A stretch of 64,000 bases of DNA from Candidatus Sumerlaeia bacterium (GCA_019634695.1 JAHCAW010000001.1:48328-112327); one strand, 5' to 3'. Numbered from the stretch's first letter, positions 11,384 through 53,430 are shown. Numbers and translations are program-made. The notes: generated by a model from the letters alone, not told the origin.

Positions 11384-12007
11384 TCATGGTCGGCGTGCGC
11401 GCGTGGGACTGGTGGGGGAGTCGTCGGCCTGCACGTCGGCGGTCAGCGGCGGCGGCACAAGGAACAGGCGTTCGACCTCCTCGCGGCGCACATCGACTTC
11501 GGCGATCACGTCGCGGGTGAGGTCGGCCGCCGCCGTGCCGAACAGCACGTTCTCGCCGCGCAGTACGATGTCGATACCCTCGCGGCGGGCGACGTCGGCG
11601 ACGACGTCGTGGATGAGTTCCATCAGCGGCTCGAGTTGGCGCTCGCGGATGCGGCGCTCGCGGTCGTAGGCCTGCGCCTGGCGGTCGAGTTCGGCGGCCA
11701 GCGCCTGATACTCCTCGCGGCGCTGGCTGGTGCCGTCGGACGACAGCAGCACGCGCTGGCGTTCGTACTCGGCGCGGAAGCGGGCCAGCTCGGCGCTGCG
11801 CTCCTCGATGCGCTCGCCCAGGCGGGCCAGTTCGGCGTCGGCCTGTTCGAGCGTCTCGCGCACCGCCACGCTCCCCGGCACGATGCGGTCCATGTCCACG
11901 AACGCCACCCGCATGCAGGGCGCGCGTTCCTCCTCGGCCAGCGACGGCGACAACGCCAGTCCCGTCGCCACTGCCACCGCGAACAGCCGGGCACGAACCT
12001 TCAGCAC
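11384..12007 (-). CDS. OmpH/Skp-family periplasmic chaperone
   Basis: GTG start with a GGAGGAG RBS. The signal peptide VLKVRARLFAVAVATGLALSPSLA is followed by a long charged coiled-coil (ELARLGERIEERSAELARFRAEYERQR). Confidence 0.7.
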   Translation of the reverse strand: MLKVRARLFAVAVATGLALSPSLAEEERAPCMRVAFVDMDRIVPGSVAVRETLEQADAELARLGERIEERSAELARFRAEYERQRVLLSSDGTSQRREEYQALAAELDRQAQAYDRERRIRERQLEPLMELIHDVVADVARREGIDIVLRGENVLFGTAAADLTRDVIAEVDVRREEVERLFLVPPPLTADVQADDSPTSPTRARRP

Positions 12008-21396: not shown

Positions 21397-21717
21397 GGCA
21401 CGCTCCCACGACCTCGCCCGCACGCGCCCGAAACCGGGTGAGGCTTTCCCGTCACAGTCCAGCCCCTCCACAGCCTCTGCTCCCTTTCGCGCGACTTCGG
21501 CCGGTCGTCGCAGCATTGCCGCCATTGAACTTGCGAATCGACCTCTCCCAAATTCCCCGTCGGGGAAGGATTTTGCTATTCTCTTCCAAGTGTTCGCTGC
21601 TTCGCGGGGGACGTGTGCCCGAAGACCAATCCGGTGTCGGTCGCTCGATCGGGTCCCATACCTCCGCCCCATTCATCGGGTCGTCGGAAACGTGTGCTGA
21701 GAGGGAGGCGCGCCGAG

Positions 21718-24700
21718 ATGAGAACCCTTCGAATCGCTCAAGCTGTCCGTGCGGTGATCCTGACCGTGCTGCTGGGGCTTCTGACCGCCCCGGCGCTGGC
21801 GCAGGCCATTGGCCGCGTGGAGGTTATGTCGGTTACACCGCGCATGGTCGCGGCGGATCCGAACGACATCTTCGACGAGGTCGCCTCGGGCCTCAACGTC
21901 GTGGGCGTCGAAGAGAAGGTCTACCTGTCGGCCATGGCGCTGCCCGGGCAGACGCTCGGCGGGGCGACCTGGGTGCTGCGCAGCCGGCCCGGCGAGTCCA
22001 ACGCCGCCCTGAGTGACACGACGGGCACACTCGTGACGCTGGTTCCCGACGTCTCGGGACTCTACATCGTCGAGCTGACTCCGCTCAATGCCTCGAACCA
22101 ACCGACCACCGTCGTTCGCCAGCGCATCTACGCCGGCGTCTGGGTCGGCGCCGGCGTCTTCAACACCCACGCCGATCCGAATCCGACGATCCCATCGTGT
22201 GCCAACGCCTGCTGCCACGCGGAGAGCAACGTCCCGCGCCTCAACGTCGTCGACCGCTGGCTCGACAGCAAGCACGCCACCACCCTGCAAGCGCACCTCA
22301 ACGGCGAGCGCGGCAACCACACCACCGAGTCGTGTCTGCCCTGTCACAGCGTCGGCTTCAAGAAGTCGGCCGACAACCGGGGCTTCGACGACATCGCCTT
22401 CGACCTTGGATTCGACCTCGCCCAGATCGCCACGCTCGTTCAGGACGCCGTCGCCAACGGCAACCAGAACTTCCACGTCCTTCCCGCCGCCCTTCAGAAC
22501 CACGCCTCCGTGCAGTGCGAAAGCTGCCACGGACCCGGCTCGCACCACCTCGGCGCGATCCTGGAACCGGACCGCGGCATCGCCGGCGTCAACCTCGACA
22601 CCAAGCAGTGCGCCCAGTGCCACGACTCGGCCTCGGGCTTCCAGCAGGGATTCTATCAGTGGAACGCCTCCTCGCATCCGATCACCGCGGACCTGAGCCA
22701 GGGCAACGTGGCGACGAACAACACGTGCCGGCCCTGTCACACCGGCGAAGGCTTCGTCTACGGCATGGTGCGCGGCGAGCCGATCCCGCAACTCGGCGCC
22801 GGCCAGTACCACGGCATCACCTGCTCGAGTTGCCATGACCCGCACGGCTCCGAGCACCCGCACCAGATTCGCATCTCGGGCGCCGTGACGCTGCCCAGCG
22901 GCCACGTCTTCGAGACCGCCGGCAAGGGCGGCCTGTGCGCCAAGTGCCACAACACGCGCTCGACCAACGGCGACAACACCGCCATCACCAGCTTCCGCGG
23001 CGCCCACTACGGCCCGCAGGCCGACGTCCTTCTCGGCGTCAACATGGCCCACTTCAACCTGCCCGTCTACGATAACTCCGCCCACACCACCATCGTGAAG
23101 GACACCTGCGTGACCTGTCACATGGCGCCGGGCGTCGGCGGTGGACCGGGCCAGACGACGCCGCCGCTCGTTGGCGAGCACACCTACTCCATGCGCGACG
23201 ACCGCGGCACGGCCGACCCGTCCGACGACATCATCAACGCTGCCAACGCCTGCGCCTCCTGCCATCCCGAGCTGACCGACACGTACAACCGGCTCGCCCG
23301 TGGCGACTATGACGGCGACGGCGTGCGCGAAGGCATCCAGACCGAGGTCGAGGGCCTGCTGGCCCTGCTGCGTCCCGGCCTGCTCGCCCTGCCCGGTGCC
23401 AGCTTGAGTGCCTCCGGCACGATCAGCGTCACCCAGGCCAACTGGAACACTTGGTCTCAGGACCAGCGCCGCGCGGTCTACAACCACAACATGGCCGTCA
23501 ACGACAAGAGCCGCGGCATCCACAACACCTCGTTCACGGTGCAGAGCCTCCAGCGTTCGTACTTCGGCGCCTACGGCCGCACGATCACGGACGACTTCCC
23601 CAAGATCGACCTGCGCGGCCCCGTGCAGCCGACCTCGATCGTTCCGCCAACCCCGTCGCCGACTCCTGTCCCCACGCCGACCCCGGTGCCGACCCCGGTG
23701 CCCGAATACCTGGCCGTGATCGACCTCGTCGGCGTGTCGCCGCGCACGGTGGACACCGACACCTCCGGCAGGTTCGACGAGGCCGCGACAGGCCTGCGGG
23801 CCGTCGGCGTTGGCGAGAAGGTCTACATGCAGGCGCGCAAGGTGGACAACGCGGTGATCTCGTACCGCTGGAGCATCCTGAGCCGTCCGTCGGGTTCGAC
23901 CGCCGGCCTCAGCGCCACCACCGGCGAGGCCATCACCTTCCGGCCCGACCGCCGCGGCGTCTACATCGTGCGCCTGACTCCGGAGACTTCCGGCAAGGCC
24001 GTCATCGACGTTTACGACCAGCGCATCTACGCCGCCGACTTCGTGGGTGTCGGCAAGATCGATCCCGAGTCGACCGTCGCGCCGCGGGCGCCGCAGTGCG
24101 GCACCGGCTTCTGCCACGGCGGAGACAGCGGCAACGCCGACCTCAACGTGCTGCAGGACTGGCTCCAGACCAAACACGCCAGCAAGCTGCAACGCGACCT
24201 CAACGGCGAGACCGTCGCCTTCTACTCGGTCTCGTGCCTGCCCTGCCACACGGTCGGCTTCAACGACCACTTCCAGGCGATCAACAACGGCTTCGACGAC
24301 ATCGCCACGCGGCTGTCGTTCGACCTGAACCAGATCCCGGCGCTCGTTGCCGACGCCCGCCAGAACGGCAACCGCAACTTCAACCAGTTGCCGGCCGAGC
24401 TGCAGGGCCACTCCTCCGTGCAGTGCGAGAGCTGCCACGGCGCCGGCTCGCTGCATCCGTCGAACCTGACGGCGGCCGACAAGGGCATCGACGGCGCGAA
24501 CCTCGGCTTCTCGGCGTGCGCCAAGTGCCACGACTCGGCCTCGGGCTTCCAGCAGGGCTTCTACCAGTGGAGCAGCTCGTCGCACCCGGTGACGGCGGAC
24601 CTGAGCCAGGGTAGCGTCGCGGCCAACAACACCTGCCGGCCGTGCCACACCGGCGAGGGCTTCGTCGCGGTGTATGGCGACGGCAAGCCGATCCCGCAGC

Positions 24701-25581
24701 TCGCCAACCACGAATACCACGGCATCACCTGCTCGGCCTGTCACGATCCGCACAGCGCGAAGAATCCGCACCAGTTGCGGGCGTGGGGCGACTTCGTGAT
24801 TCCGTCGGGCACGCGGCCGTACGGCTCCGGCACCGGCGGCACCTGCTTCCGCTGCCACAACTCGCGCATCGCCAACGCGGAGACCACTTCGCAGACGAGT
24901 TTCCGCGGGGCGCACTACGGAACCCAGGGCGACATGCTGCTCGGCTCGACCGGTGTGTCGTTCGGCCTGCCGTTCTCGCCGAACTCGCCGCACCTTGCCA
25001 CCGTGGACAACACCTGCACGGCCTGTCACATGGCGGAGACGCCGCTGTCCGGGCCGGGCATCATCGAGACGCCGCTTGTCGGCGGACACACCTACTCGAT
25101 GCGCGACACCCGCGGCACGGCCGATCCGTCCGACGACATCATCAACGTGGCCAACGCCTGCCAGCAGTGCCACCTGACGCTCGACAGCTACGACTATCCG
25201 GCGCGGGGCGACTACGACGGCAACGGCATCGTCGAGGGCACGCAGACCGAGGTCGCCGGGCTGCTGCTGATGCTGCGCACCGGCATCCTGGCCACCATGC
25301 CCGGGACGACGGCCAACGCCGCCGGGCGCATCAGCGTCACCACCGCCGCCTTCAGCCAACTGACTCCGGACCAGAAGCGCGCGCTGTACAACTACAACTT
25401 CGTCCATGCGGACGGCAGCCTGGGCGTGCACAACACGGCCTACGCGGTGCAGTTGCTCCAGCGCTCGTACTACGGCGTCTACGGGGTGTCGATCCTGGTC
25501 GACTTCCCGAACATCCACCTGCGCGGCCCCGTGCAGGAACCGATCCCGCGCCCGTCAAGGGACCAATGGCGCGTGCGCTGA
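21718..25581 (+). CDS. Secreted giant multiheme cytochrome c: 18 heme motifs, two homologous halves joined by a Pro/Thr linker
   Basis: The signal peptide is MRTLRIAQAVRAVILTVLLGLLTAPALAQA. Each half carries one CX4CH (CANACCH / CGTGFCH) plus 8 CXXCH. The linker is PPTPSPTPVPTPTPVPTPVP. Confidence 0.9.
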   Translation: MRTLRIAQAVRAVILTVLLGLLTAPALAQAIGRVEVMSVTPRMVAADPNDIFDEVASGLNVVGVEEKVYLSAMALPGQTLGGATWVLRSRPGESNAALSDTTGTLVTLVPDVSGLYIVELTPLNASNQPTTVVRQRIYAGVWVGAGVFNTHADPNPTIPSCANACCHAESNVPRLNVVDRWLDSKHATTLQAHLNGERGNHTTESCLPCHSVGFKKSADNRGFDDIAFDLGFDLAQIATLVQDAVANGNQNFHVLPAALQNHASVQCESCHGPGSHHLGAILEPDRGIAGVNLDTKQCAQCHDSASGFQQGFYQWNASSHPITADLSQGNVATNNTCRPCHTGEGFVYGMVRGEPIPQLGAGQYHGITCSSCHDPHGSEHPHQIRISGAVTLPSGHVFETAGKGGLCAKCHNTRSTNGDNTAITSFRGAHYGPQADVLLGVNMAHFNLPVYDNSAHTTIVKDTCVTCHMAPGVGGGPGQTTPPLVGEHTYSMRDDRGTADPSDDIINAANACASCHPELTDTYNRLARGDYDGDGVREGIQTEVEGLLALLRPGLLALPGASLSASGTISVTQANWNTWSQDQRRAVYNHNMAVNDKSRGIHNTSFTVQSLQRSYFGAYGRTITDDFPKIDLRGPVQPTSIVPPTPSPTPVPTPTPVPTPVPEYLAVIDLVGVSPRTVDTDTSGRFDEAATGLRAVGVGEKVYMQARKVDNAVISYRWSILSRPSGSTAGLSATTGEAITFRPDRRGVYIVRLTPETSGKAVIDVYDQRIYAADFVGVGKIDPESTVAPRAPQCGTGFCHGGDSGNADLNVLQDWLQTKHASKLQRDLNGETVAFYSVSCLPCHTVGFNDHFQAINNGFDDIATRLSFDLNQIPALVADARQNGNRNFNQLPAELQGHSSVQCESCHGAGSLHPSNLTAADKGIDGANLGFSACAKCHDSASGFQQGFYQWSSSSHPVTADLSQGSVAANNTCRPCHTGEGFVAVYGDGKPIPQLANHEYHGITCSACHDPHSAKNPHQLRAWGDFVIPSGTRPYGSGTGGTCFRCHNSRIANAETTSQTSFRGAHYGTQGDMLLGSTGVSFGLPFSPNSPHLATVDNTCTACHMAETPLSGPGIIETPLVGGHTYSMRDTRGTADPSDDIINVANACQQCHLTLDSYDYPARGDYDGNGIVEGTQTEVAGLLLMLRTGILATMPGTTANAAGRISVTTAAFSQLTPDQKRALYNYNFVHADGSLGVHNTAYAVQLLQRSYYGVYGVSILVDFPNIHLRGPVQEPIPRPSRDQWRVR

Positions 25582-35629: not shown

Positions 35630-36700
35630 GTGACGCGCGCGCTGGCACTGCTTGCGCTGCTCCTCGTGCTGGCTTCGTGCGCCGGCACGCGTCGCGATCC
35701 GTTTGCGACGACGGCGGGAATCGCTCCCGTCTGGCCTCCGCCGCCCGAGCCGCCGCGCGTGGAGCATGTGCTGTCGATCGCCGACCATCGCGATCTGTTC
35801 GAGGAAGGTGGTTTCGGCCGGTCGCTGGCACGCCTTGTCGGTGGCCCGGTCGACTCGCGGCTTGTGCGGCCCTATGCCATCGCGGTGGATGCGAAGCTCG
35901 GGCTGCTGGTGACGGATCCGGGCAATCAGTGTGTGCATCGGTTCGACTGGGACTCGCGGCGCTATCGCCGGATTGGCGAGTCGTTGGCGGGCGGCCTGCC
36001 GTCGCCTGTCGGCGTGGCTGTCGCGCGGGACGGGTCGATTCTCGTGGCGGATTCACGCCTCGCATCGATCGAACGATTCAGCTCCGACGGGCGCCATCTT
36101 GGACGCTTCGCGCCGGGACATCCATTCCGTCGGCCGGCTGGCATCGCCGTCGATGAAGCGAGCGGCGAGGTCTACGTTGCCGACGTGCTCGCGCATCAGG
36201 TGCTGGTCTTCGGCGCCGACGGGGCGTTGCAGCGCGCGCTGGGCGGCAACGGCAGCGCACCGGGCCGGTTCAACTTCCCGACGCATCTCGGGCTGGACGG
36301 ATCGGGCGGGCTGCTGGTGGCCGACGGGATGAACTTCCGCGTGCAGCGCCTGGCGCGCGATGGCGCGGCGCTGACGGTGTACGGGCGCGTCGGCACGGCG
36401 CGCGGCGACTTCGCGCACCCCAAGGGCGTCGCCGCATGGGACGCGGAGACGTTCGTCGCGGTCGAGGGCCTGCACGACGCGCTGGTGTTGTTCGATGGAG
36501 AGGGCCGCCTGCTGCTGGCGATCGGCGAGGCGGGTTCGGGGCCGGGGCAGTTCTGGCTGCCGGCCGGACTCGCGGCGGACCGCGCGCGCGGCCTGCTCTT
36601 CGTCGCCGACAGTTTCAACAGTCGGGTGCAGGTGTTCCGCCTGCTGCCCGCGCCCGCCGTGTCCGACCCCGCGCAGGAAGAGAAAGGACCGACCCCATGA
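35630..36700 (+). CDS. NHL-repeat beta-propeller lipoprotein (second copy)
   Basis: GTG start and lipobox VLASC. Blades include GLLVTDPGNQCVHRFD, GSILVADSRLASIERF, GEVYVADVLAHQVLVF, GLLVADGMNFRVQRL and GLLFVADSFNSRVQVF. Confidence 0.8.
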   Translation: MTRALALLALLLVLASCAGTRRDPFATTAGIAPVWPPPPEPPRVEHVLSIADHRDLFEEGGFGRSLARLVGGPVDSRLVRPYAIAVDAKLGLLVTDPGNQCVHRFDWDSRRYRRIGESLAGGLPSPVGVAVARDGSILVADSRLASIERFSSDGRHLGRFAPGHPFRRPAGIAVDEASGEVYVADVLAHQVLVFGADGALQRALGGNGSAPGRFNFPTHLGLDGSGGLLVADGMNFRVQRLARDGAALTVYGRVGTARGDFAHPKGVAAWDAETFVAVEGLHDALVLFDGEGRLLLAIGEAGSGPGQFWLPAGLAADRARGLLFVADSFNSRVQVFRLLPAPAVSDPAQEEKGPTP

Positions 36701-38394
36701 ACCGCCTGCCGCTTCTCGCGCTGGGGGCGCTGCTCGTTGTCCTCGCAACGCGGGGCCTCACGCAGACCAGCATCGTCGATACGCCGCACAACCTCTCGTC
36801 GAGCGGCCCCGGCGCCATCCGCGCGCTCGACGAGGATCGCGTCTGCGTCTTCTGCCACACGCCGCACGGCGCGCGCACCGAGGCGCCGCTGTGGAATCGA
36901 CGCGACTCGAGCGCCACCTATCAGCCCTACGACAGCCCCACGCTCGTCGCGCGACCGGGCCAACCCACCGGCTCCTCGAAGCTCTGCCTCTCGTGCCACG
37001 ACGGCACCGTCGCGCTCGGCGATCTCGTCTCGCAGTCGACGCCGATCGACTTCGCCGGCGGCACGCGCATGCCGGCCGGTCGCTCGCTCATCGGCACGGA
37101 CCTGCGCGACGATCATCCCATCTCCTTCGCGTACTCCGACGCCCTGTCGGGCGGCAGCGCACGCCTGGCCGCGCCGCACTCCTGGGACCCGGCCATCCAG
37201 CTCGACGCCGCCGGCATGCTCCAGTGCACCACCTGCCACGATCCGCACGACAACCAGTGGGGGCGCTTCCTCGTCATGCACAACGCCGAGGCCCGCCTTT
37301 GCCGCGAGTGCCACATCATGCCCGAGTTCGACAACACGCCGCACGCGCTGTCGAACGCCACATGGAACGGCGTCGGCACGACGCCGTGGCCGCACACGGA
37401 GTTCGACAACGTGGCGACCAACTCGTGCCTGAACTGCCATCGCTCGCACCACTCGCCGCGCGGCCAGCACCTGCTGACCGGCGCCACCGACGCGGCCACC
37501 TGTCTGGCGTGCCACGACGGCAGCGTCGCGCGCTCCAACGTCCAGGTCGCCCTGCGCAAGCCCCATCGCCATCCGGTGCTCGAGACGTCGGCCGCGCACG
37601 TGCCGGGCGAGGTCCTCACCGGTTTCGCCGATCACGTCACCTGCTCGGACTGCCACAGCCCGCATCACATGACGACGTCGAAGGCCGACGCGCCGATGGT
37701 GCCCGGCACGATGACCGGCGTCTCCGGCGTGACGATCGACGGCACGCCGATCGCCGAGGCGATGTTCGGCTACGAGGTCTGCCTGAAGTGCCATGCCGAC
37801 GACGCCTCGGCCACCTTCCGCGGCATCGAGCGCCAGGTGCGGTCCAACGGCGTGCGCCGCGCGTTCGCCTCCGACAGCCCCTCGTTCCATCCCGTGGCGT
37901 TCACGGGCCGGAACCCGGACGTGCCGAGCTTGATCGCGCCGCTGAACGAGCAGTCCCAGATCGCGTGCACGGATTGCCACGGCGACGACGCGACGGCGCC
38001 GGGCTCGGGCGCCGCCGCCCCGCACGGCTCGCAGCACGAGTTCCTCCTGCGGCGCGAGTACCGCACCGGCTCGCGGGTCTCCGAGAGTCCGACGGCCTAC
38101 GCGCTTTGCTACGGCTGCCACGACCGGTCGGTCGTGCTCAGCGACCGCAGCTTCGTGGGCCATCGCCGCCACGTCGTCGACGAGCGCACGCCCTGCTCGG
38201 CCTGCCACGACGCGCACGGCATCGACGGCGCCGCCGGCAACGCGGTCAACAACGCGCGCCTGATCAACTTCGACCTGTCGGTCGTCTCGCCGCTGCCGCT
38301 GACGGGCGAATTGGAATACGTCTCGCACGGCTCGGGAACGGGCTCGTGCACACTCAACTGCCACGGCAAGGACCACAACCGGCAGGACTACTGA
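36697..38394 (+). CDS. Periplasmic/secreted multiheme cytochrome c with 12 motifs (11 CXXCH + terminal CX3CH)
   Basis: Its start forms an ATGA overlap with the NHL gene, and it has a signal peptide. Motifs are CVFCH, CLSCH, CTTCH, CRECH, CLNCH, CLACH, CSDCH, CLKCH, CTDCH, CYGCH, CSACH and CTLNCH. Confidence 0.9.
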   Translation: MNRLPLLALGALLVVLATRGLTQTSIVDTPHNLSSSGPGAIRALDEDRVCVFCHTPHGARTEAPLWNRRDSSATYQPYDSPTLVARPGQPTGSSKLCLSCHDGTVALGDLVSQSTPIDFAGGTRMPAGRSLIGTDLRDDHPISFAYSDALSGGSARLAAPHSWDPAIQLDAAGMLQCTTCHDPHDNQWGRFLVMHNAEARLCRECHIMPEFDNTPHALSNATWNGVGTTPWPHTEFDNVATNSCLNCHRSHHSPRGQHLLTGATDAATCLACHDGSVARSNVQVALRKPHRHPVLETSAAHVPGEVLTGFADHVTCSDCHSPHHMTTSKADAPMVPGTMTGVSGVTIDGTPIAEAMFGYEVCLKCHADDASATFRGIERQVRSNGVRRAFASDSPSFHPVAFTGRNPDVPSLIAPLNEQSQIACTDCHGDDATAPGSGAAAPHGSQHEFLLRREYRTGSRVSESPTAYALCYGCHDRSVVLSDRSFVGHRRHVVDERTPCSACHDAHGIDGAAGNAVNNARLINFDLSVVSPLPLTGELEYVSHGSGTGSCTLNCHGKDHNRQDY

Positions 38395-38471
38395 ACCGCG
38401 TCAGCACCCCTGAACGGAACGCTCCGTCCGGGTGTTACGTGGGGTCGTTCATTCAACATGAGTGAAATCAG

Positions 38472-38560
38472 TGGTGGACGGGAGTGGGTTCGAACCACTG
38501 TAGGGTGTTATACCCGCCAGATTTACAGTCTGGTGCCATTAACCACTCGGCCACCCGTCC
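38472..38560 (-). tRNA. tRNA-Tyr (anticodon GTA), class II with long variable arm, CCA encoded
   Basis: The reverse complement is GGACGGGTGGCCGAGTGGTTAATGGCACCAGACTGTAAATCTGG...AGTGGTTCGAACCCACTCCCGTCCACCA. The acceptor, anticodon and T arms all pair. Confidence 0.9.
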
Positions 38561-38588
38561 ACAAAGAGAAACAGACTCCGGAAGAGCA

Positions 38589-38664
38589 TGGTGCTGGTGA
38601 TGGGACTCGAACCCGCAACCGCCTGATTACAAATCAGGTGCTCTGCCAATTGAGCTACACCAGC
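38589..38664 (-). tRNA. tRNA-Thr (anticodon TGT), CCA encoded
   Basis: The reverse complement is GCTGGTGTAGCTCAATTGGCAGAGCACCTGATTTGTAATCAGGCGGTTGCGGGTTCGAGTCCCATCACCAGCACCA. It folds as a cloverleaf with one C-A mismatch in the T stem. Confidence 0.85.
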
Positions 38665-38778
38665 ATGGAAAGCCGTGCCTTGTCGGGGGTGCGGCTTTCC
38701 CCTTGGCGACTGTCGTCGCGAAGGAGGCAAGGAAGTAGGCCCGGGGCCGCCCGGCTGTCAACGACCAAGTGACCGGCG

Positions 38779-40071
38779 TCACGACCCGCGGGGGTCCGGG
38801 GTTTCGGCGGCCGGCAGGATCGGGGCGTCCACGTCGATCGGGTTGATCGGCGTGCTGTCCTGCAGCACCTCGAATCCGCGGACCACGACGCGGTCGCCGC
38901 TCTGGACGCCGAAGGTGATCTCGACCTCGTCCTTGCCCTCGAGGCCCAGCTCGACCGGGGTCATGCGGGCGACGGCATAGTCGGTGTCGGGCTGGCCGAC
39001 CGCGACGAAGACGACGTCGAGGTTGTTGCGGCGGGTCAGGGCGGACTTGGGCAGGCGGATGCGGTCGCGGCGGCGTTCGACGACGACGTCGCCGCGACCG
39101 AACATGCCGGGGCGCAGGGCCAGACCGGGATTCTCGAGCAGGATATCGACCTCGAAGGCGCGGGTGTCCGGGTTGACGTTGGCCGAGATGCGCTCCACCT
39201 GCCCGGTGGGGGTCATGTCCTCGGTGGCGTAGATGACGACGTCGGCCTGCTGGCCAAGGGCGATGCGGCCGATGTCGCGGCTGGTGACGTCGCAGCGCAT
39301 GAGGACGCGCGACAGGTCCACGACGCCGCAGACAAGGTGGCTGGCGGAGATCTGGCGGCCCTCGTGGCTGGTGACGGATTCCTGGCCGAAGCCGCGGGCG
39401 AAGCGACCGCTGCCCTCCAGGGTGGCGGGGGCGACGACGACGCCGGCGAACGGGGCGCGCAGGACGAGGCGCTCGACGCGGTTCTCGGTCTCGCGCAGGT
39501 TCGTCTGGGCCTTCTCGAGGTTGATGAGCGCCTGGCGTCGGCTGTTGCGCGAGCGCTCGAGTTCGAGCTCGGCGGCGTCGAGTTCCTTCTTGGCGGAGAT
39601 GCCGCGGGAGTACAGGCCCTGGACGGAGCGGAACTCCTCGGTGCGGAAGCGCAGGGCGCGGTCGGCGATGTCGAGGTTCTCGCGTTGGAGGTCCACGTCG
39701 GCGCGATTGAGCATCAGCTCGCGGGCGAGGTTGGGGCTCTCGATGCGGGCGATGACCTGGTCCTGCTCGACGAGGTCGCCCTCGATCCAGGGGCGCTCGA
39801 AGAAGAGGCGGCCGGCTTCCTCGCTGCGGACCGCCTGGCTGCGGATCGGGACGATGGACCCGGTGGTGGAGATGGTCGCGCGAATCTCGCCCCGCTCGGC
39901 CGTCTTCACCAGCACGGGCGTCAGGAAGGGCCGTTCCTTGCGGATGGTGGCGGCGGGCTTGTCGCCCGACGCGCCCTCCTTGGAGGCACCATCCTTCTTG
40001 CCGGGTCGGCAGCCCGACGCGGCAACGAGCAACAGCAGCAGGAGGAGGGCGTGGTGGCGGGAAACGGGCAT
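38779..40071 (-). CDS. Efflux transporter periplasmic adaptor (HlyD/MFP family) lipoprotein
   Basis: Has the lipobox VAASGC, a coiled-coil hairpin (DLQRENLDIADRAL...ELELERSRNSRRQALINLEKAQ), the segment LRAPFAGVV and a beta-barrel C-terminus. This is the tail of track ORF 38779..41433. Confidence 0.8.
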   Translation of the reverse strand: MPVSRHHALLLLLLLVAASGCRPGKKDGASKEGASGDKPAATIRKERPFLTPVLVKTAERGEIRATISTTGSIVPIRSQAVRSEEAGRLFFERPWIEGDLVEQDQVIARIESPNLARELMLNRADVDLQRENLDIADRALRFRTEEFRSVQGLYSRGISAKKELDAAELELERSRNSRRQALINLEKAQTNLRETENRVERLVLRAPFAGVVVAPATLEGSGRFARGFGQESVTSHEGRQISASHLVCGVVDLSRVLMRCDVTSRDIGRIALGQQADVVIYATEDMTPTGQVERISANVNPDTRAFEVDILLENPGLALRPGMFGRGDVVVERRRDRIRLPKSALTRRNNLDVVFVAVGQPDTDYAVARMTPVELGLEGKDEVEITFGVQSGDRVVVRGFEVLQDSTPINPIDVDAPILPAAETPDPRGS

Positions 40072-42732: not shown

Positions 42733-44385
42733 ATGCGAGCCGACCTGCGCCAGCTTCCCCGCGTGCGCACCTACTGGGTGCTGACGGTCCTGATGGCCGT
42801 GGGGCTGTGGCTGCGCGGGACGGACCTTGGACTGGTGCCGTTCAACATCGACGAGGCGGCGCTGAGTGTGTTCGCCAACACGCTGGCGCACCTGCGCGGC
42901 CTTCCCATCGTGGGCGTGCGGACGAGCTTCGGGTTTCACAACCCGCCGCTGTTCGTCTACCTGATGGCGCCCTGCTTTGCGTTCACGCAGGACCCGCGGT
43001 TCGCCGTGCTGGCGTTGGCGATGGCGGGCACGCTGGCGATTGGGTTGGTGGGACTGACGGCGCGGCGTCTGTGGGGCGGCTGGGCGGCGGTGGTGGCGGC
43101 CGCGCTCGTGTGCTTCTCGCCCACGGCCATCGACCACAGCCGACGGCTGTGGGGGCACGACACGATGATTTTCTGGAGCGCGCTGGCGTTGTACGCGGCG
43201 GTGCGCGCGTCGCAGTCGAGTCGTCGCAAGTTCGCGTGGGTGGGTCTTGGGGCGGCGGCCGCCGCGCAGGCGTGCCATCTGTCGGGCGTGTTGCTGTGGA
43301 TCGTGCCGGTCGGGGCGCTCGTGTTGTTCCGTCCCTCGCACTGGCGGCGTTCGCTGGCGGTTGGTGCGCTGGTGCTGGGGGTGATCTATGCGCCGTGGGT
43401 GTTCGAGGAGGCGCGGGCGGGCGAGTCCGGGCGCCGCTTCGAGGAAACCCGCCTGATCGTGGGCCTGATGACGGGCCGCGCGGAGGTGGCGCGACGGGCC
43501 GAGGGGCCTGCTCCCCCGATCGAGTCCTGGGCGTTGCAGTTGGCCGATGCCGGGCACAACGACATGTTGGGGCTCGAGTACGAGCGGTTTCTCGCGGAGC
43601 GCCCCGCGCTGCGCAGGACGACACGCGCGGCATGGTGGCTGCTGGCGGGCTTGCAGGTGGCGGCGATGATCGCGTTGCTGGCGACGGCCACGCGCTGGCG
43701 GTCGATGCCCGTGTCGGCGCGCTGGGCGATGCTGTTGGCGGCGGGGGCGCTCGCGCCCATGGTGCTGTTCACCGTGTTGCCGGTGACCGCGGTGCCGCCG
43801 TATCAGTTGCCCGCGCTGGTGCCGTGCGCGTTGGCGGTGGCCTGGCTGGCGACGCGCTGGCCGGAGATCGTGCGGGGCGCCTCGTGGCGGGCGATGCGGC
43901 GTCGCCCCCTCGAGGCGCGCGCGTTGGCGGGCGCGCTCGTGCTCGTCCTGTTCGTCGCGGCGTTCGGCGTGTCGTACACGCGGGCGCAGCGGGGCTTCCT
44001 GCGGGCGGTCACACCGGCGGACCGCACGACGACGGCGCTCGCGCACAAGATCGACGCGATGGCCCTGATCGTCAGCTCCGCGGCGGCGAGCGGCGTGCGC
44101 ACCTCCATCTCGCAGGACGGGCGCACCGCGCGCGCCGGCCTGGACTACTGGGTGGTGTACCTGCACTACTACGTCTCGGGTAGCGAGACAGTCCCGGTCG
44201 ATCCGCTGGCCGAGCACCAGTTCGTGGTGCGCGACAGCAAGACGGTGCTGCGGCCCGAGGTGGCCGCATGGCTGGAGCAGTTCGACTCGACCGCGATCGG
44301 CAACCTGACCGTCACGCGCCTGATCGGCCCCGAAGCCGCCGAGTGGCGCCGCCTCACCGAACTCTTCCCGTCGGCAGGGGAGTGA
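42733..44385 (+). CDS. Polytopic membrane glycosyltransferase, PMT/ArnT-like (GT39/GT83-type)
   Basis: Has at least 10 hydrophobic helices, an N-terminal loop motif PFNIDEAAL..GFHNPPLFVYL, and a soluble C-terminal domain. Confidence 0.7.
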   Translation: MRADLRQLPRVRTYWVLTVLMAVGLWLRGTDLGLVPFNIDEAALSVFANTLAHLRGLPIVGVRTSFGFHNPPLFVYLMAPCFAFTQDPRFAVLALAMAGTLAIGLVGLTARRLWGGWAAVVAAALVCFSPTAIDHSRRLWGHDTMIFWSALALYAAVRASQSSRRKFAWVGLGAAAAAQACHLSGVLLWIVPVGALVLFRPSHWRRSLAVGALVLGVIYAPWVFEEARAGESGRRFEETRLIVGLMTGRAEVARRAEGPAPPIESWALQLADAGHNDMLGLEYERFLAERPALRRTTRAAWWLLAGLQVAAMIALLATATRWRSMPVSARWAMLLAAGALAPMVLFTVLPVTAVPPYQLPALVPCALAVAWLATRWPEIVRGASWRAMRRRPLEARALAGALVLVLFVAAFGVSYTRAQRGFLRAVTPADRTTTALAHKIDAMALIVSSAAASGVRTSISQDGRTARAGLDYWVVYLHYYVSGSETVPVDPLAEHQFVVRDSKTVLRPEVAAWLEQFDSTAIGNLTVTRLIGPEAAEWRRLTELFPSAGE

Positions 44386-44536
44386 GCGGGTTCCGGGAAA
44401 CAAACGACAGCGCCCGGCCGCGACGGCGCCACCCTGCACAGGCGACGACGAAACGCCAGACACCCGGGCGACTTCGGCCTCATGGAGCAACATGGACAAC
44501 CGGACACCCGCCAAGGACCGGTCCTTCCCGGCGAGC

Positions 44537-45070
44537 GTCCACCCCGTCCACCTCGTCCACTTCGTCCACTTTCCTAGTGGACGCAAAGTGGACAGGACAA
44601 AGTGGACGACCATCCGTCCACTTTGCACCCCCGTCCACCTCGTCCACTTTGTCCACTCACCTAGTGGACAACAAAGTGGACAGGACAAGTGGACGACCAT
44701 CCGTCCACTGTCCACCCCGTCCACCTCGTCCACTTCGTCCACTTTCCTAGTGGACGCAAAGTGGACAGGACAAAGTGGACGACCATCCGTCCACTGTCCA
44801 CCTCGTCCACTGTCCACTTCGTCCACTTACATAGTGGACGACAAACTGGACAGGACAAGTGGACGACCATCCGTCCACTGTCCACTCCGTCCACTGTCCA
44901 CCTCGTCCACTTCGTCCACTTACCTAGTGGACGCAGAGTGGACAGGACAAAGTGGACGACCTATCCGTCCACCGTCCACTCCGTCCACCGTCCACTCCGT
45001 CCACCTCGTCCACTTCGTCCACTCACATAGTGGACGACAAACTGGACAGGACAAGGTGGACGCCCTGTCC
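44537..45070. repeat. Six tandem hairpin units (79, 87, 86, 84, 94, 104 bp) built from GTCCAC / GTGGAC hexamers
   Basis: There are 31 exact GTCCAC copies, mostly at 9-bp spacing, and 16 exact GTGGAC copies. Every unit has the form (GTCCACnnn)n-YTAG-TGGAC-n5-GTGGAC-n8-GTGGACGACCATCC. The array lies between convergent genes. Confidence 0.95.
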
Positions 45071-45142
45071 GTCCGGTGACCACTCATGCGGTCTTGGGAG
45101 GTGGATGGCACCGCCCCGGCCCCAGTTGACGGGTTGGTGCTG

Positions 45143-46690
45143 CTAGTTGCTATCCGGGGTCGCATCGGACGGGCCGATGCGGGCGAGTCGTCGCGCGAGT
45201 TGAGCCTCGTGGAGGTTGGCGGGGGTCAGGAGATGCGCGGGGATCGCTTCGATCCAGAGTCCGTCGGACGTGGCGGCGGCCGGCTCCTGGAGCGCGAGGC
45301 CGACGAAGTTGACCAGATCGGTGCTCCAGCCCGCCTGGCGCTTCACGGCCTGCGGCGTGCGGATGCCCCAGAAGGTCTCCCATGCGGCGCAGTGGCGGCC
45401 GAGGTTGGCGCCGCCGCCGCTGCGCCACAGGCGTGTGGCGGCTCCGGCGTCGAGGGCCGTGAAGAGGTTGGCGTTCGGGGCGCGCTTGTGGTGGTCGAAG
45501 CACAGGTCCACGCCGCGCCCGTTGGAGAAGACGTTGGCGGCGCTGGTCGAGCTGACCGTCAGGTCGTGGATGAAGCGGTGGCGGAAGTCGAAGCCGGTGA
45601 TGAGGTTGTCGGTGCGCGAGATGAGCATGCCGTGGTGGCCGAAGTCGCCGCGAAAGGGGATGGCATCGTCGGTGGCGCGAAAGGTGACGTCGGCGAAGGT
45701 GCAGAACCAGGCGCTGGAGATGATGCCGCAGTCGGCGTTGACGATCTCGATGTCGCGGACCCAGCAGTCGCGCACGTTGGCGAAGGCGACCGCGTTGTAG
45801 CCCGCCTCGGTGAAGTGGCCCTCATAGGCGCGCGCGGGGAACTCGACGGTGAGCGACTCGATGCCGCTGTCGGAGACGGAAACCTCGAAGCCGCGAAGGC
45901 GCGGGCGCCATGCGCTGCGGATGTCGTAGCGCAGCGGGCGGTCCAGCACCGCGACGTCGGCCTCGAGGCGCAGGACGCGGACCACTTGCAGCGCGCGCGT
46001 CGTCGCGGGGCGGATCATGCTCGTGTCGCCCGGGTCGCCACCGTACAGGTAGTCGAGCAACGACTTGTCGTCGTCGTCGCGCAGTTCGACGGCGATCTCC
46101 ATGCCGTCGCGCAGCACGCCGGGCTTGGTCACCGTGAGGCGATCGTCCCCGCGACGAGCGGGCGCGGCGATGTCCGTCAGGACCTCCTCGCGAAACGTGC
46201 CGCGGATGCCGAGGAAGCCGTCCGACCAGGAGTAGCCGGAGAGCGGGCGACCGCCGCTGTTGGTGGTCGGCTTCGGGTCGATGTGCTCGAGGCCCTTGGG
46301 GAAGACGAGCACCGTGCGCCCCGGGCCCTCGCCGCGCAGCACAACGCCGGAGCGCCGGATCGAAACGCGATCCGTCAGGATGTAGCGACCGGCCGGAATC
46401 AGGATGGCGCCGGATTCGGTCTCGGCGACGGCGCGCTGGAAGGCGGCCGTGTCGTCGCCCTCGTCGTCGGGCACGGCGCCGAAGTCGGTCACGCGGGCGA
46501 CGACGGCGACGTCGGGGATGGGGCTCTCGCCGGAGCGATAGCCCGCGAACGAGAAGTCGGGCAGGCGCCCGGCGGGATCCCACAGTTCGCCCGCTTCACC
46601 CCAGAGCGCGGAGTGCGTCGGTTCGGCGGCGCCCAGCGACGCCGTCAGCAGGATCGCCGCCAGTCGGGGCAGCATCGTTGCCCGTGTCAT
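45143..46690 (-). CDS. Secreted right-handed beta-helix protein of the pectate-lyase superfamily (glycoside hydrolase/lyase-like)
   Basis: Starts at MTRATMLPRLAAILLTASLGAA with a GGAGGAG RBS. The N-terminal motif VTDFGAVPDDEGDDTAAFQRAVAE..GAILIPAGRYIL is typical of Pectate_lyase_3-type domains. Confidence 0.65.
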   Translation of the reverse strand: MTRATMLPRLAAILLTASLGAAEPTHSALWGEAGELWDPAGRLPDFSFAGYRSGESPIPDVAVVARVTDFGAVPDDEGDDTAAFQRAVAETESGAILIPAGRYILTDRVSIRRSGVVLRGEGPGRTVLVFPKGLEHIDPKPTTNSGGRPLSGYSWSDGFLGIRGTFREEVLTDIAAPARRGDDRLTVTKPGVLRDGMEIAVELRDDDDKSLLDYLYGGDPGDTSMIRPATTRALQVVRVLRLEADVAVLDRPLRYDIRSAWRPRLRGFEVSVSDSGIESLTVEFPARAYEGHFTEAGYNAVAFANVRDCWVRDIEIVNADCGIISSAWFCTFADVTFRATDDAIPFRGDFGHHGMLISRTDNLITGFDFRHRFIHDLTVSSTSAANVFSNGRGVDLCFDHHKRAPNANLFTALDAGAATRLWRSGGGANLGRHCAAWETFWGIRTPQAVKRQAGWSTDLVNFVGLALQEPAAATSDGLWIEAIPAHLLTPANLHEAQLARRLARIGPSDATPDSN

Positions 46691-46733
46691 GTCTGTGCTC
46701 CTCCCGGACGATGGCGCGCGGGCCGGTCCGTCG

Positions 46734-47321
46734 TCAGTAGGGCCCGTACAGGTCGGTCCACTTCCACGTGATGAAGAAGAGGATCGTGTGGCGGATGTAG
46801 CGCGCCTGGGCGCCGACCTCGGGGATTTCGAACAGCAGCGCGTTGTCGTCGGTGTCGAGGGCATGAGCGCCCATGCGCGCGCGCCCGAGCTGCCAGTCCT
46901 TCTTGAACAGACTGATCTCCGGCGTGTTGAGCGAGGCGCCGACGAAGCTGAAGTTGAACTCGGGGATGCCGACGAGGAGCTGGAAGTCGTCGATGCCCCC
47001 CGAGGCGGCGGTCATGCGGACGCGCACGTCGGACTCGTCGGCGTCGTGGGACTCGAGCATGCCCTGGCGCAGCAGGTACAGGCGCATCATGGCTTCGGTG
47101 TATTGCTGGTCCGGGAGGTCGAGCGACTCGGTGTCGAGGAAGTAGCGCTTGCCGGCGACGTTGTCGAGCGCGGGGAACTGGTCGATCGTCATGAGGGAGG
47201 ACTGGGCGATGAGCTGGCGCTCGACGGCCGTGCGGGGGGTCGTCGTCTTGCGCGACGAGACGCACCCGGCGAGGCTGGCGAACAACAGAGGCAGGACGAA
47301 CAGGAGGATAATGCGGTTCAT
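46734..47321 (-). CDS. Lipoprotein of unknown function (195 aa)
   Basis: The N-terminus MNRIILLFVLPLLFASLAGC contains a lipobox. The gene has high GC3. Confidence 0.6.
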   Translation of the reverse strand: MNRIILLFVLPLLFASLAGCVSSRKTTTPRTAVERQLIAQSSLMTIDQFPALDNVAGKRYFLDTESLDLPDQQYTEAMMRLYLLRQGMLESHDADESDVRVRMTAASGGIDDFQLLVGIPEFNFSFVGASLNTPEISLFKKDWQLGRARMGAHALDTDDNALLFEIPEVGAQARYIRHTILFFITWKWTDLYGPY

Positions 47322-51502: not shown

Positions 51503-51733
51503 ATGCCTGTCGAAGCCCGGCAGCCTAACCACGCAGAATCCACCGTGAAGGAGGGGGCGCTCACACATTCGGAGCGAGCGGCGCTCGACCAAATTGTGGC
51601 CCGCATGTTCCAGCTCTGGATCTGTGATTCGCTCTCCAAGTCGATTCACGACCAACTGAATGCACGACTGGAACGTGAGATCGGCCACAAACTCTCGCAG
51701 CTCATCCGATCGGATGTTTCTCGCATCCTTTAG
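51503..51733 (+). CDS. Small hypothetical protein (76 aa; could start at 51464)
   Basis: The ORF lies in lower-GC DNA. Its TAG stop overlaps the TA target duplication of the IS element. I recognise no motif. Confidence 0.3.
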   Translation: MPVEARQPNHAESTVKEGALTHSERAALDQIVARMFQLWICDSLSKSIHDQLNARLEREIGHKLSQLIRSDVSRIL

Positions 51734-52861
51734 AGCGGTTGCCAGTATTCATGGCCGAATCGCGCAGGTCTGCGTGTTGAGCGTTTGGCGGTTCATAGCC
51801 CAGCAGAGGGCCTTGTCGAGCCGCTCCATCAGTTCGTCTCGCGTCTTGGCGACGAAATCGATGAACCAGTTGGCCTTGATGATCAGCCACAGGCGTTCGA
51901 TGGGGTTCATGTCGGGCGAGTAGGCCGGCAGGTACAGAGGCTCGAACCGGCCCCACCGAAGGCTCTTCGCGCGGTGCCACGAGGCGTTGTCCATGATGAG
52001 GATCTGGCGGGGACGCTTGAAGGCGATGTCCTTGTTCGCCTCGTCGAGGAAGACCTGGAAGACTTCGCGGTCGGAGTGACTGAACTCGAGGAGGAACGCT
52101 TCGCCGGTACGCGGGCAGATCATGCCGCAGACGTTCATGCGCAGGTGGTCGCCGTTCTTCGTGACGGTCGGTTTGCTCCCCTTCTTCGCCCAGCGCCGCC
52201 GCGGCCGCGGGTCGCCTTCGACACCCATTTCATCTTGAAACCACAGGTCGATCTGCTCGTCGACCATCAACTGCGCGAGCTTCTCGCGAAACGCCTCGCG
52301 GGCCTGCTCGTCCTGGCGGTCGGGCCACGGGCGCGGCACCTTGAGGGCAAAGCCGCGCTCGTGAAACAGCCGCACCACGGTGCGGTAGCTCACCTCGACC
52401 TCCGTGCAATCCTTCAGCCAGCCGTGGAACTTGCGGGCCGTCCAATGCGTTTCGTTGGCAAGAGCCGGGTCCTCGATCACCTTCTCAAAATAGGCGGCCT
52501 GCTCGGCCTGAATCGCCTTCGGCCGACCGGGATGACGGCGGTCGATCAGGCCATCGATGCCCTGGGCGTTGAAGGCCGCGACCCAGCGCCGCAGTGTCCG
52601 TTCGCTCGTGTTGAACAGGGCGCAGGTGAACTCGAAAGTCGCGCCGAGAATCAGTGCCTTCATCGCCAGCAGACGGCGCTTGGCCAGTTCCGACGCGCCC
52701 GCGTCCGCCGCCGTATCCAGATCGGCGGCCGAAGCGTTTTCGGGGTTCGGAAGGACTCGTTCGCGGCTCACGCGTGAGGTAAAACACAGACTCCTCCACT
52801 AAAAAAGGGAAATCTGCACCCAGAGCACACTTTTTTCGGCCAACTATTTTGGCAACCGCTC
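51733..52861 (-). mobile_element. IS630-family insertion sequence (1129 bp) with TA target-site duplication
   Basis: The terminal inverted repeats are GAGCGGTTGCCA (51733-51744) and TGGCAACCGCTC (52850-52861). Both are flanked by TA (51731-32 and 52862-63). The element holds a single DDE transposase ORF. Confidence 0.85.
51749..52771 (-). CDS. IS630-family DDE transposase
   Basis: 340 aa with an N-terminal HTH, followed by WFQDE, IMDNASWH and LPAYSPDMNPIERLW. Confidence 0.9.
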   Translation of the reverse strand: MSRERVLPNPENASAADLDTAADAGASELAKRRLLAMKALILGATFEFTCALFNTSERTLRRWVAAFNAQGIDGLIDRRHPGRPKAIQAEQAAYFEKVIEDPALANETHWTARKFHGWLKDCTEVEVSYRTVVRLFHERGFALKVPRPWPDRQDEQAREAFREKLAQLMVDEQIDLWFQDEMGVEGDPRPRRRWAKKGSKPTVTKNGDHLRMNVCGMICPRTGEAFLLEFSHSDREVFQVFLDEANKDIAFKRPRQILIMDNASWHRAKSLRWGRFEPLYLPAYSPDMNPIERLWLIIKANWFIDFVAKTRDELMERLDKALCWAMNRQTLNTQTCAIRP

Positions 52862-52884
52862 TAGTTCGGCGTGGAGTCCGCATC

Positions 52885-53352
52885 ATGTCGAATGAGCCAG
52901 GGTTCAAGTCTGACCAGAGTGCAAGTCTCGGGTCGGAAGCACAGCAAGAGCTGAGACCTGATCTGGCTGCCTCCGAGGAGTCGGACTCATCGGGCGCGGA
53001 CGTCGCGCTTCCATCCAGCCTCGTCGAGAACGCACCCAGATTCATCCGCGAGTTCATGGCGATTGCCAGCCACTCATCCGGTCCCTTGCCGAATCCGATC
53101 GCGAAGAAGTTTACTGCCGAGCATATTGACAAGCTGCTGGCCAACAGCTCGAAGGAAGAGGAGCACCGGCACAGCCAGTACCTGCATCGCAACTACACTT
53201 GGTTGATCGTGCTCGCTCTGCTCTTGGCCTTCTTGGTGTTCTGCATCCTGAAGATCGAGGACGCGGATTTGGTAAAGATGATCGTGGCGACAGTATTTGG
53301 CTTTCTTGCCGGTGGGCTTGGGGGTTTCGGGCTCGGTCGCGCCACCAGATAG
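52885..53352 (+). CDS. DUF2335-like membrane protein
   Basis: SGPLPNPIAKKFTAEHIDKLLANSSKEEEHRH followed by two TM helices matches the DUF2335 pattern as I remember it. Confidence 0.6.
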   Translation: MSNEPGFKSDQSASLGSEAQQELRPDLAASEESDSSGADVALPSSLVENAPRFIREFMAIASHSSGPLPNPIAKKFTAEHIDKLLANSSKEEEHRHSQYLHRNYTWLIVLALLLAFLVFCILKIEDADLVKMIVATVFGFLAGGLGGFGLGRATR

Positions 53353-53430
53353 TGGCTACGGGTCCACGTTCGCGCCACTTCGGTCCGGTCCATGATTGTG
53401 GGTGCCCTGGAAGGTCGCGGAGCAGCCAGC

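Follow-up and report, generated by a model that had tools for sequence, protein, structure and literature searches.

This analysis concerns a dense array of the hexamer GTCCAC and its reverse complement GTGGAC at positions 44537–45070 of a 64,000-nucleotide stretch (hereafter the window) from Candidatus Sumerlaeia bacterium (GCA_019634695.1, JAHCAW010000001.1:48328-112327). The array is non-coding and has an ordered anatomy; orthologous arrays in relatives differ in copy number and spacing while their hexamers are invariant, and the same word recurs in other phyla, where paired arms keep a fixed polarity. Judged from these comparisons, the constrained part is the hexamer (core GGAC/GTCC) and not the spacing, the spacers or the hairpin, and a word recognised at the DNA level accounts for the data better than a conserved hairpin or a coding repeat does. 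Tentatively, and with somewhat less than even confidence, we read the array as a slippage-prone platform on which a sequence-specific DNA-binding protein would dock at putative recognition sites. Both the binding and the identity of the binder we infer from the patterns described below.

Anatomy and non-coding status of the array

The 534 bp contain 31 exact copies of GTCCAC, 16 of GTGGAC and two of the variant CTGGAC, where dinucleotide-preserving shuffles of the window predict ∼0.38 copies of the word (45.4 ± 6.2 per 64 kb, both strands). An earlier reading of this DNA, made from the sequence alone (the sequence-only reading), had counted the same 31 and 16 copies against an expectation of ∼0.3. 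Both strands of the 64-kb window together hold 105 copies, of which 58 lie scattered outside the array, and no hexamer pair at 9-bp spacing was found outside it within the window. The GC content of the array region is 58%, versus 69% for the window.

According to Tandem Repeats Finder the array has periods of 9, 7 and 16 bp; its direct copies are spaced by 9 and 7 bp. The sequence-only reading had placed the motif (C/A)TAG at the centre of each unit. Comparison with other genomes indicates that the natural unit begins there, and the motif is thus a junction between units; orthologous arrays carry CTTAG or CCTGG at this position. Cut at (C/A)TAG, the array resolves into five full units of 84–103 bp and two partial ones. 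The order within a unit is CTA, GTGGAC, N5–6, GTGGAC (CTGGAC in two units), AGGACA(A)A, GTGGAC, a GACC(T)ATCC linker, four to seven copies of GTCCAC, and TTWC: a three-copy GTGGAC arm, joined by 8–9 nt to a GTCCAC arm of four to seven copies at 9- or 7-bp spacing. Every GTGGAC arm also holds one degenerate copy with the GGAC core, CAGGAC, and with this copy included has four GGA motifs. The array opens with a lone GTCCAC arm and closes with a lone GTGGAC arm, as follows.

44537–45070, no strand assigned: whole hexamer array; 31 GTCCAC, 16 GTGGAC and 2 CTGGAC, plus CAGGAC in each GTGGAC arm
44537–44573, plus strand: leading partial unit, GTCCAC arm only, four copies at a 9-bp period
44574–44660, plus strand: unit 1; CTA, GTGGAC arm (three copies and AGGACA), GACCATCC linker, GTCCAC arm of four copies
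44661–44746, plus strand: unit 2; GTCCAC arm of five copies
44747–44830, plus strand: unit 3; GTCCAC arm of five copies at spacings of 7 and 9 bp
44831–44923, plus strand: unit 4; middle inverted copy is CTGGAC, GTCCAC arm of six copies
44924–45026, plus strand: unit 5; GTCCAC arm of seven copies, with 16-bp higher-order repeats inside
45027–45075, plus strand: trailing partial unit; GTGGAC arm, then the decayed sequence GTCCGTCCG

Within the six units as drawn by the sequence-only reading, direct copies do number 4, 4, 5, 5, 6 and 7, CTGGAC does take the place of GTGGAC in the fourth and sixth, and eleven copies do extend to TGTCCAC (six as TGTCCAC and five as GTGGACA). The rising number of direct copies is true of this array but is not conserved: the orthologous array of one relative (L257, described below) has six and six.

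One frame is open through the whole array (an open reading frame (ORF) of 195 aa at 44492–45079), and arrays elsewhere are translated as Ser-Thr-x linkers. We nonetheless give almost no credence to a protein-coding repeat. GC content at third codon positions is 0.63 in this ORF versus ∼0.9 in the real genes of the window, from which we conclude that the array is non-coding; the sequence-only reading had reached the same verdict, which stands despite the open frame. In addition, unit lengths shift the frame and leave the repeat peptides inconsistent, the orthologues are separated by 7- and 8-bp indels, and the translation has no homologue among 5.8 billion proteins. Six TAG triplets lie on the plus strand of the array region. 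The features of coding tandem repeats (gene-like codons and an in-frame period) were encountered at a separate class of loci (L017, L136, L182 and L060). Among Sumerlaeota metagenome-assembled genomes (MAGs), the uvrC gene of L060 carries in-frame arrays in an N-terminal extension and in an internal linker (3891–3924 and 5505–5529), beside a GGTGAGAAG 9-bp repeat, and a dnaE-like gene carries a GTCCAC 9-bp array in frame (L041:1373–1415); both are translated as Ser-Thr-x.

Folded as single strands, the array is far more stable than its shuffles (z = −17 and −15 for the two strands), a trivial outcome of the inverted hexamers. The sequence-only reading had foreseen hairpin-forming units, and these are predicted, although as a pair of alternating hairpins in each unit, each spanning one arm junction, and not as one three-helix hairpin. 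Searches against Rfam returned only sub-threshold microRNA-like hairpin matches in the array region and none over the arrays of 18 loci. A consensus scan found no sigma-70-like promoter at the array.

The array in relatives and the hexamer in other phyla

Two Joint Genome Institute contigs (L257 and L258) share the gene pair, with flanks ∼89.6% identical in nucleotide sequence, and each has an array in the corresponding position; a Logan contig (L259) encodes a protein identical to the glycosyl hydrolase family 28 (GH28) protein of the window. The array is real, being present in four independent assemblies. It comprises two units in L257 (18/18 hexamers exact) and at least 3.3 units in L258, where the contig ends inside the array (11550–11854; 30/30 exact); L259 also ends within its array (2839–2907; 5/5 exact), which has one extra 7-bp module relative to the window. 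That two independent short-read contigs both end in the array shows that the repeat breaks assemblies, and the unit numbers (2, at least 3.3 and 6) are minimum estimates, since short-read assemblies can collapse repeats. In the direct arms of L257 and L258 spacings of 7, 8 and 9 bp occur, and both contigs retain the GTGGAC arm and the GACCATCC linker. The comparison of array length between strains, proposed in the sequence-only reading, finds copy number and spacing different and the hexamers exact. A further Sumerlaeota genome (L120), whose flanking protein is 65% identical, retains synteny and lacks both the GH28-related gene and the array. The array is thus lineage-specific, hypervariable in number and spacing, and constrained in its hexamer. 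A cassette comprising the array and the GH28-like gene was considered and rejected: homologues of the gene at 63–69% identity sit in other contexts without arrays. A search of 241 million metagenome records did not recover the unit specific to the window (TGGACAGGACAA...GTGGACG); its matches were chance or coding ones only.

Scanned for GTCCAC-N3-GTCCAC-N3-GTCCAC, a set of genomes with one per species gave at least 119 loci, and the counts that follow hold among the matches listed. One class consists of coding repeats, either perfect 9-bp tandems or stretches of a collagen-like and Ser/Thr-rich kind, including nearly all actinobacterial matches. A second comprises at least ∼60 non-coding arrays outside Actinobacteria, whose hexamers are exact and whose spacers vary and contain little G on the GTCCAC strand. 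These are found in Planctomycetota, Lentisphaeria, Kiritimatiellia, Verrucomicrobiota, Chlamydiota, Hydrogenedentota, Sumerlaeota, Chlorobi, Desulfobacterota, Acidobacteriota, Nitrospirota, Zixibacteria and Chloroflexota (at least 10 phyla overall). Neighbouring copies are 9 bp apart in 186 of 217 pairs, with 7, 8 and 10 bp also present. Few other hexamer arrays with a 9-bp period occur in the ∼0.9 Mb of sequence around these loci.

Of particular relevance are the at least 16 non-coding loci that have an inverted arm as well, though the query did not require one. The GTGGAC arm lies 5′ of the GTCCAC arm in all 16 (16/16). A Desulfobacteraceae MAG (L086), for example, has five GTGGAC, 18 nt and five GTCCAC, and an Acidobacteriota MAG a 7+7 paired array; loops range from 5 to 77 nt. 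The spacers of the two arms are 39% complementary versus 29% when shuffled. This low figure points to selection on the word and not on a continuous stem, and the structure is accordingly a string of 6-bp helices with no conserved stem.

Arrays in intergenic regions lie between co-directional (26), divergent (10) and convergent (6) genes, and single-arm arrays have no clear preference for one orientation with respect to neighbouring genes. All-against-all BLASTP of the ORFs of the 119 listed loci revealed no protein family common to the neighbourhoods, only generic families. Varied gene context and the lack of a common neighbour fit a factor acting in trans at the DNA level. The largest cluster of shared neighbour proteins joins six loci (L011, L023, L050, L069, L071 and L049); the L023 member has a C-terminal Fis-type helix-turn-helix resembling those of sigma-54 activators, and 6 nt separate its stop codon from the array. 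The grouping is probably due to chance.

Several GTGGAC arrays of Lentisphaeria and Sumerlaeota MAGs (L007:4246–4364 and 7484–7819, L031, L051:1777–1989 and L105) adjoin other short tandem repeats (CTCGCCG/CTCGCCC, GTGCGGG, GGCGAGG, TAATTCA and 14-mers) and look like composite repeat modules; hexamer spacing in L007 is 6–11 bp. An autonomous element, with arrays flanking a transposase, was also sought, but the sole candidate (L182) proved to be a collagen-like gene. Literature searches with array sequence strings returned primers only, and a ‘nonanucleotide’ lead in Akkermansia was a poly-G tract.

Candidate explanations

We take the locus to be a small extragenic element amplified in tandem, non-coding and hypervariable. 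In the likeliest mechanism each hexamer would be a double-stranded docking site for one DNA-binding domain. Head-to-tail copies 7–9 bp apart, together with the opposite arm, would permit cooperative coating of ∼0.5 kb and so form a nucleoprotein platform or sink where the two genes converge. Site number shifts rapidly by slipped-strand mispairing or unequal recombination of the 7-, 9- and 16-bp modules and of whole 84–103 bp units. A broader proposal, which we consider unlikely though worth stating, is that paired arrays of the form GTGGAC(n)-loop-GTCCAC(n) constitute an undescribed class of chromosomal protein-loading modules, of which the Sumerlaeota locus would be an extreme, fast-evolving expansion. 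The class would span the Planctomycetes–Verrucomicrobia–Chlamydiae (PVC) group, Hydrogenedentota, Sumerlaeota, Chlorobi, Desulfobacterota, Acidobacteriota and other phyla, and its candidate readers would be DnaA in a low-affinity mode (dispersed sites resembling datA or the DnaA-reactivating sequences (DARS), outside Proteobacteria) or a widely conserved nucleoid protein. The sequence-only reading had allowed that the array might be something new, an idea that the cross-phylum paired arrays strengthen. What sets it apart from known kinds is a word that recurs across phyla, a polarity that is fixed and a six-fold amplification at this locus.

Several observations weigh against binding by a protein. 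Spacings of 6–7 bp offer most DNA-binding domains little space, and the single-strand fold is strong on both strands. BLASTP of the neighbouring ORFs at the 119 listed loci found no binding-protein gene adjoining the arrays. Within 45 bp of arrays, 3′ gene ends (19) outnumber 5′ ends (8), an excess with which a role as RNA or single-stranded DNA would be compatible. Some arrays lie in frame within genes (L060 uvrC, L041), which is unexpected of a regulatory binding site. The invariance of the hexamer in other genomes is partly a matter of ascertainment, as the scan demanded three exact copies, and the array counts are those among the matches listed.

The sequence-only reading had offered DnaA as a possible binder, taking GTCCAC as the core of a Streptomyces/Mycobacterium-type box. 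The actinomycete framing fails, as the host is a Candidatus Sumerlaeia MAG, but part of the idea stands: hexamer core, 9-bp period and arm polarity match tandem boxes in viral sequences. The same query returned viral contigs with collagen-like genes and with a module of the form (TGTGGACAA)2, ∼16 nt, (TTGTCCACA)2; longer viral tandems adjoin AT-rich stretches and copies of TTATCCACA. Among the matches listed, 163 of 257 viral boxes equal TTGTCCACA (A at position 9 in 92%, T at position 2 in 82%), and the polarity is that of the bacterial arrays at no fewer than 65 loci, against 5 with only the opposite one. From the established consensus we infer that these modules are DnaA boxes, and they would then show that core, phase and polarity of this kind are used by proteins. 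The module itself, two TGTGGACAA, ∼16 nt (often an A run) and two TTGTCCACA, is present on at least 65 IMG/VR contigs (L260–L323, L125–L219; e.g. L264:7766–7811), often in several copies per contig and beside other short tandem repeats. Its appearance is that of an origin or a regulatory module, dependent on DnaA, in a family of mobile elements yet to be characterised; these contigs show no similarity to INPHARED phages or PLSDB plasmids.

On this basis the array could be a DnaA-binding cluster like datA or DARS, in which low-affinity DnaA-box cores arranged head to tail titrate or remodel DnaA. GTCCAC corresponds to positions 3–8 of TTGTCCACA, the dominant 9-bp period is the length of a box, and the viral modules share that phase as well as the polarity. 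The E. coli oriC has the same polarity, with R1 (TGTGGATAA) on the left and R4 (TTATCCACA) on the right, and DnaA, being universal, would explain the spread across phyla. The flanking positions, however, argue otherwise. None of the 47 copies equals TTGTCCACA, and of the 9-mers compared with TT[A/G]TCCACA 0/47 are exact and 2/47 fall within one mismatch; A at position 9 occurs in 0/47 and T at position 2 in 11/47, far from the viral frequencies, and in the other bacteria, among the matches listed, flanking positions are at background frequencies. At spacings of 6–8 bp neighbouring 9-mers would overlap. Comparison of ∼38 ORFs with Pfam identified no dnaA, dnaN, RAYT (REP-associated tyrosine transposase)/Y1 transposase, partition or phage gene in the 64-kb window; there is no TTATCCACA-type cluster (the single TTATCCACA-like site, allowing one mismatch, lies outside the array), and no DnaA domain-IV motif was found in any fetched locus. 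An origin-proximal DnaA cluster was rejected for want of dnaA, dnaN or canonical boxes in the window. No protein other than DnaA is known to have a site of this core, period and polarity, but it is a weak candidate, and a candidate only in a non-canonical, low-affinity mode; a titrating cluster strikes us as improbable.

A selfish palindromic element of the repetitive extragenic palindromic (REP), bacterial interspersed mosaic element (BIME) or REPIN (REP doublet forming a hairpin) kind, its single-stranded hairpins copied in trans by an HUH/RAYT-type enzyme encoded elsewhere, is a more serious contender, though still an unlikely one; a side effect of its tandem hairpins would be a two-way barrier to transcription and protection of the mRNA 3′ ends of the convergent genes. 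The likeness to BIME clusters, already suggested by the sequence-only reading, holds for the extragenic position, the tandem alternation of inverted palindromes and the copy number that differs between strains; the presence of the array in close relatives and its absence from a more distant syntenic genome, the excess of gene 3′ ends near arrays, the terminator-like hairpin predicted in the last unit by consensus scan, and the in-frame arrays, which suggest insertion, also agree with it. Rickettsia palindromic elements insert within genes in a similar manner. REPINs carry GT[AG]G at the 5′ outer position; here GTGG starts each GTGGAC and the polarity places it at the 5′ outer end of both strands, but it recurs inside the stem rather than standing once 5′ of the hairpin. 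The element nevertheless occupies one locus in 64 kb, with none elsewhere in the ∼15 kb of orthologous sequence read or in L120, its unit pattern is absent from the metagenome collection and no Y1/RAYT transposase was found among the window's ORFs. Its arms are poorly complementary outside the hexamers, target-site duplications were not seen, 10 of 42 arrays (among the matches listed) lie in divergent promoter regions, and REP sequences are normally species-specific and not common to several phyla. Alternatively, a short palindromic seed could have been expanded by replication slippage and homogenised by gene conversion into a neutral minisatellite whose hexamer nothing recognises. The higher-order 9-, 7- and 16-bp repeats, the whole-unit duplications, the copy-number differences between near-identical strains and the many other short tandem repeats beside arrays in Lentisphaeria and Sumerlaeota genomes are all to be expected of such a process, but concerted evolution cannot produce the same hexamer, period and polarity (16:0) with different spacers in many phyla, other 9-bp hexamer arrays are rare in the flanking sequence, and the orthologues keep their hexamers exact while spacers and spacing change, so that we hold a minisatellite to be quite improbable. 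Less probable again is a structured non-coding RNA, a small RNA or long 3′ untranslated region in which GUGGAC/CAGGAC (through GGA) or GUCCAC sequesters an RNA-binding protein as a CsrB-type sponge. The fold, the four GGA motifs of each GTGGAC arm, the G-poor spacers of the GTCCAC strand and a left flank more conserved than the neighbouring genes accord with an RNA, while the lack of an Rfam match, of a sigma-70-like promoter in the consensus scan, of spacer covariation and of orientation bias in single-arm arrays do not; to our knowledge CsrA has not been reported in Chlorobi or Chlamydiota.

If the hexamer is a conserved recognition word, as the platform reading would have it, it offers a 6-bp bait of fixed polarity for a DNA-binding factor common to poorly studied, mostly uncultured phyla, and the arrays would test whether replication initiation is controlled by dispersed DnaA-box-like arrays outside the model Proteobacteria and Firmicutes. 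Should the array instead prove selfish and REP-like, it would stand as the first such element made of stacked hexamers and common to several phyla. Whatever the function, it is a natural variable-number repeat that separates closely related Sumerlaeota populations.

Genomic setting and comparison with known systems

The window is ordinary chromosome of the Candidatus Sumerlaeia MAG, and the glycosyltransferase beside the array matches a protein of such a MAG at 100% identity; a plasmid or phage origin was rejected, as blastn of the region against PLSDB and INPHARED gave no match. The array does lie between convergent 3′ ends, as the sequence-only reading had it, and the features that surround it are these.

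42733–44385, plus strand: upstream convergent gene, GT39/PMT_2-type glycosyltransferase; stop codon 151 bp ahead of the array
44386–44536, plus strand: left flank; GGAC-core words CATGGAC and CCGGAC, and a perfect palindrome, AAGGACCGGTCCTT, at 44513–44526
45044–45070, minus strand: terminator-like hairpin with a T-rich tail, formed from the last partial unit (consensus scan only)
45143–46864, minus strand: downstream convergent gene, GH28-related (pectate-lyase fold); stop codon 72 bp from the array

The true product of the GH28-related gene is probably 515 aa long (45143–46690), and the terminator-like hairpin lies ∼70 nt past the stop codon of this minus-strand gene. The left flank (151 bp) is ∼95% identical to L257, versus ∼89.6% for the flanking genes (counted by eye on aligned strings).

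The window also contains a multihaem cytochrome cluster, cytochrome c maturation genes, a sigma-54 two-component system, glycosyltransferases, an S-adenosylhomocysteine hydrolase, type IV pilus ATPases and one IS630 element. The c-type cytochrome cluster (12034–38394) has Paired_CXXCH and MtrC/MtrF-like domains and includes a 1322-aa protein (21613–25581); it is accompanied by ResB/CcsA maturation genes, an NHL-repeat protein and the sigma-54 two-component pair, and suggests extracellular electron transfer in this Sumerlaeota MAG. Near 38 kb the cumulative GC skew turns from falling to rising, beside tRNA-Tyr and tRNA-Thr genes (38472–38664, minus strand). No dnaA, DnaA-box cluster or long non-coding region was found at the switch (∼36000–40000), which consists of ordinary coding sequence and tRNA genes, and the change may stem from the composition of the cytochrome genes. 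The IS630-family insertion sequence (51731–52863) encodes a DDE_3 transposase (51749–52771, minus strand) and has 29-nt inverted repeats (TAGAGCGGTTGCCA...) with TA flanks. L258 lacks it, ∼640 bp replacing window positions 51718–53413, and its absence from so close a relative indicates a recent insertion. Derivation of the array from this element, as a miniature inverted-repeat transposable element, was rejected: the inverted repeats are unrelated and no duplications flank the arrays.

Comparison with known systems finds partial likenesses. With DnaA-box clusters (the DnaA-oligomerisation regions of oriC, datA, DARS, and those of B. subtilis and Streptomyces) the array shares the core TCCAC/GTCCAC and the dominant 9-bp period, and its two inverted arms share their polarity with canonical viral tandem boxes. 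It differs from them in its mismatched positions 1, 2 and 9, in its additional 7–8 bp spacings, in its location within the window away from dnaA or oriC, and in a density far above that of any known cluster. Ribbon-helix-helix proteins are small dimers that polymerise along DNA, and their arrays (the omega heptads of pSM19035, the ParG tetramer boxes, the pB171 parC hexamers and the MetJ metboxes) consist of abutting words of 4–8 bp in direct and inverted orientation; they sit upstream of the operon of the binder, whereas the GTCCAC arrays are chromosomal and dispersed, with no such gene adjacent.

Like BIME, REP and REPIN sequences, the array is extragenic, made of imperfect palindromes alternating in tandem, variable in copy number between strains and placed, as these often are, just past stop codons; GTGG at the 5′ outer end of each strand may also recall their GT[AG]G. 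In contrast to their single stem of 20–40 nt, each arm here is one stacked hexamer with non-complementary spacers, and the single locus in 64 kb, the lack of a RAYT gene in the window and the recurrence of the word across phyla are likewise unlike REPs.

Paired tandem repeats described in Geobacter metallireducens as ‘global regulator binding sites’ (GTTGCTYN ×4, TCTCCGTS[Y] ×3 and MTYCTGA ×5; Aklujkar et al. 2009, PMC2700814) come closer. They comprise three classes of 7–9 nt words, in 3–5 copies, arranged as intergenic, opposite-strand pairs at variable distance and dispersed in the genome; related heptamer arrays occur inside genes too, and the authors proposed that the sites are bound by global regulators such as IHF/HU (PMC2700814). 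The GTCCAC arrays share the opposite-strand pairing, the 3–5 tandem repeats of 7–9 nt and the variable distance. Their word, GTCCAC/GTGGAC, is none of the Geobacter words (GTTGCTYN, TCTCCGTSY or MTYCTGA); the Geobacter families were described in one genome whereas the GTCCAC arrays recur across phyla, and the Sumerlaeota locus, unlike the Geobacter sites, is amplified to a six-unit tandem array. By analogy of architecture, then, the nearest published description is that of the Geobacter paired sites and the nearest well-studied analogue the BIME cluster; the array resembles both, and we claim membership in neither.

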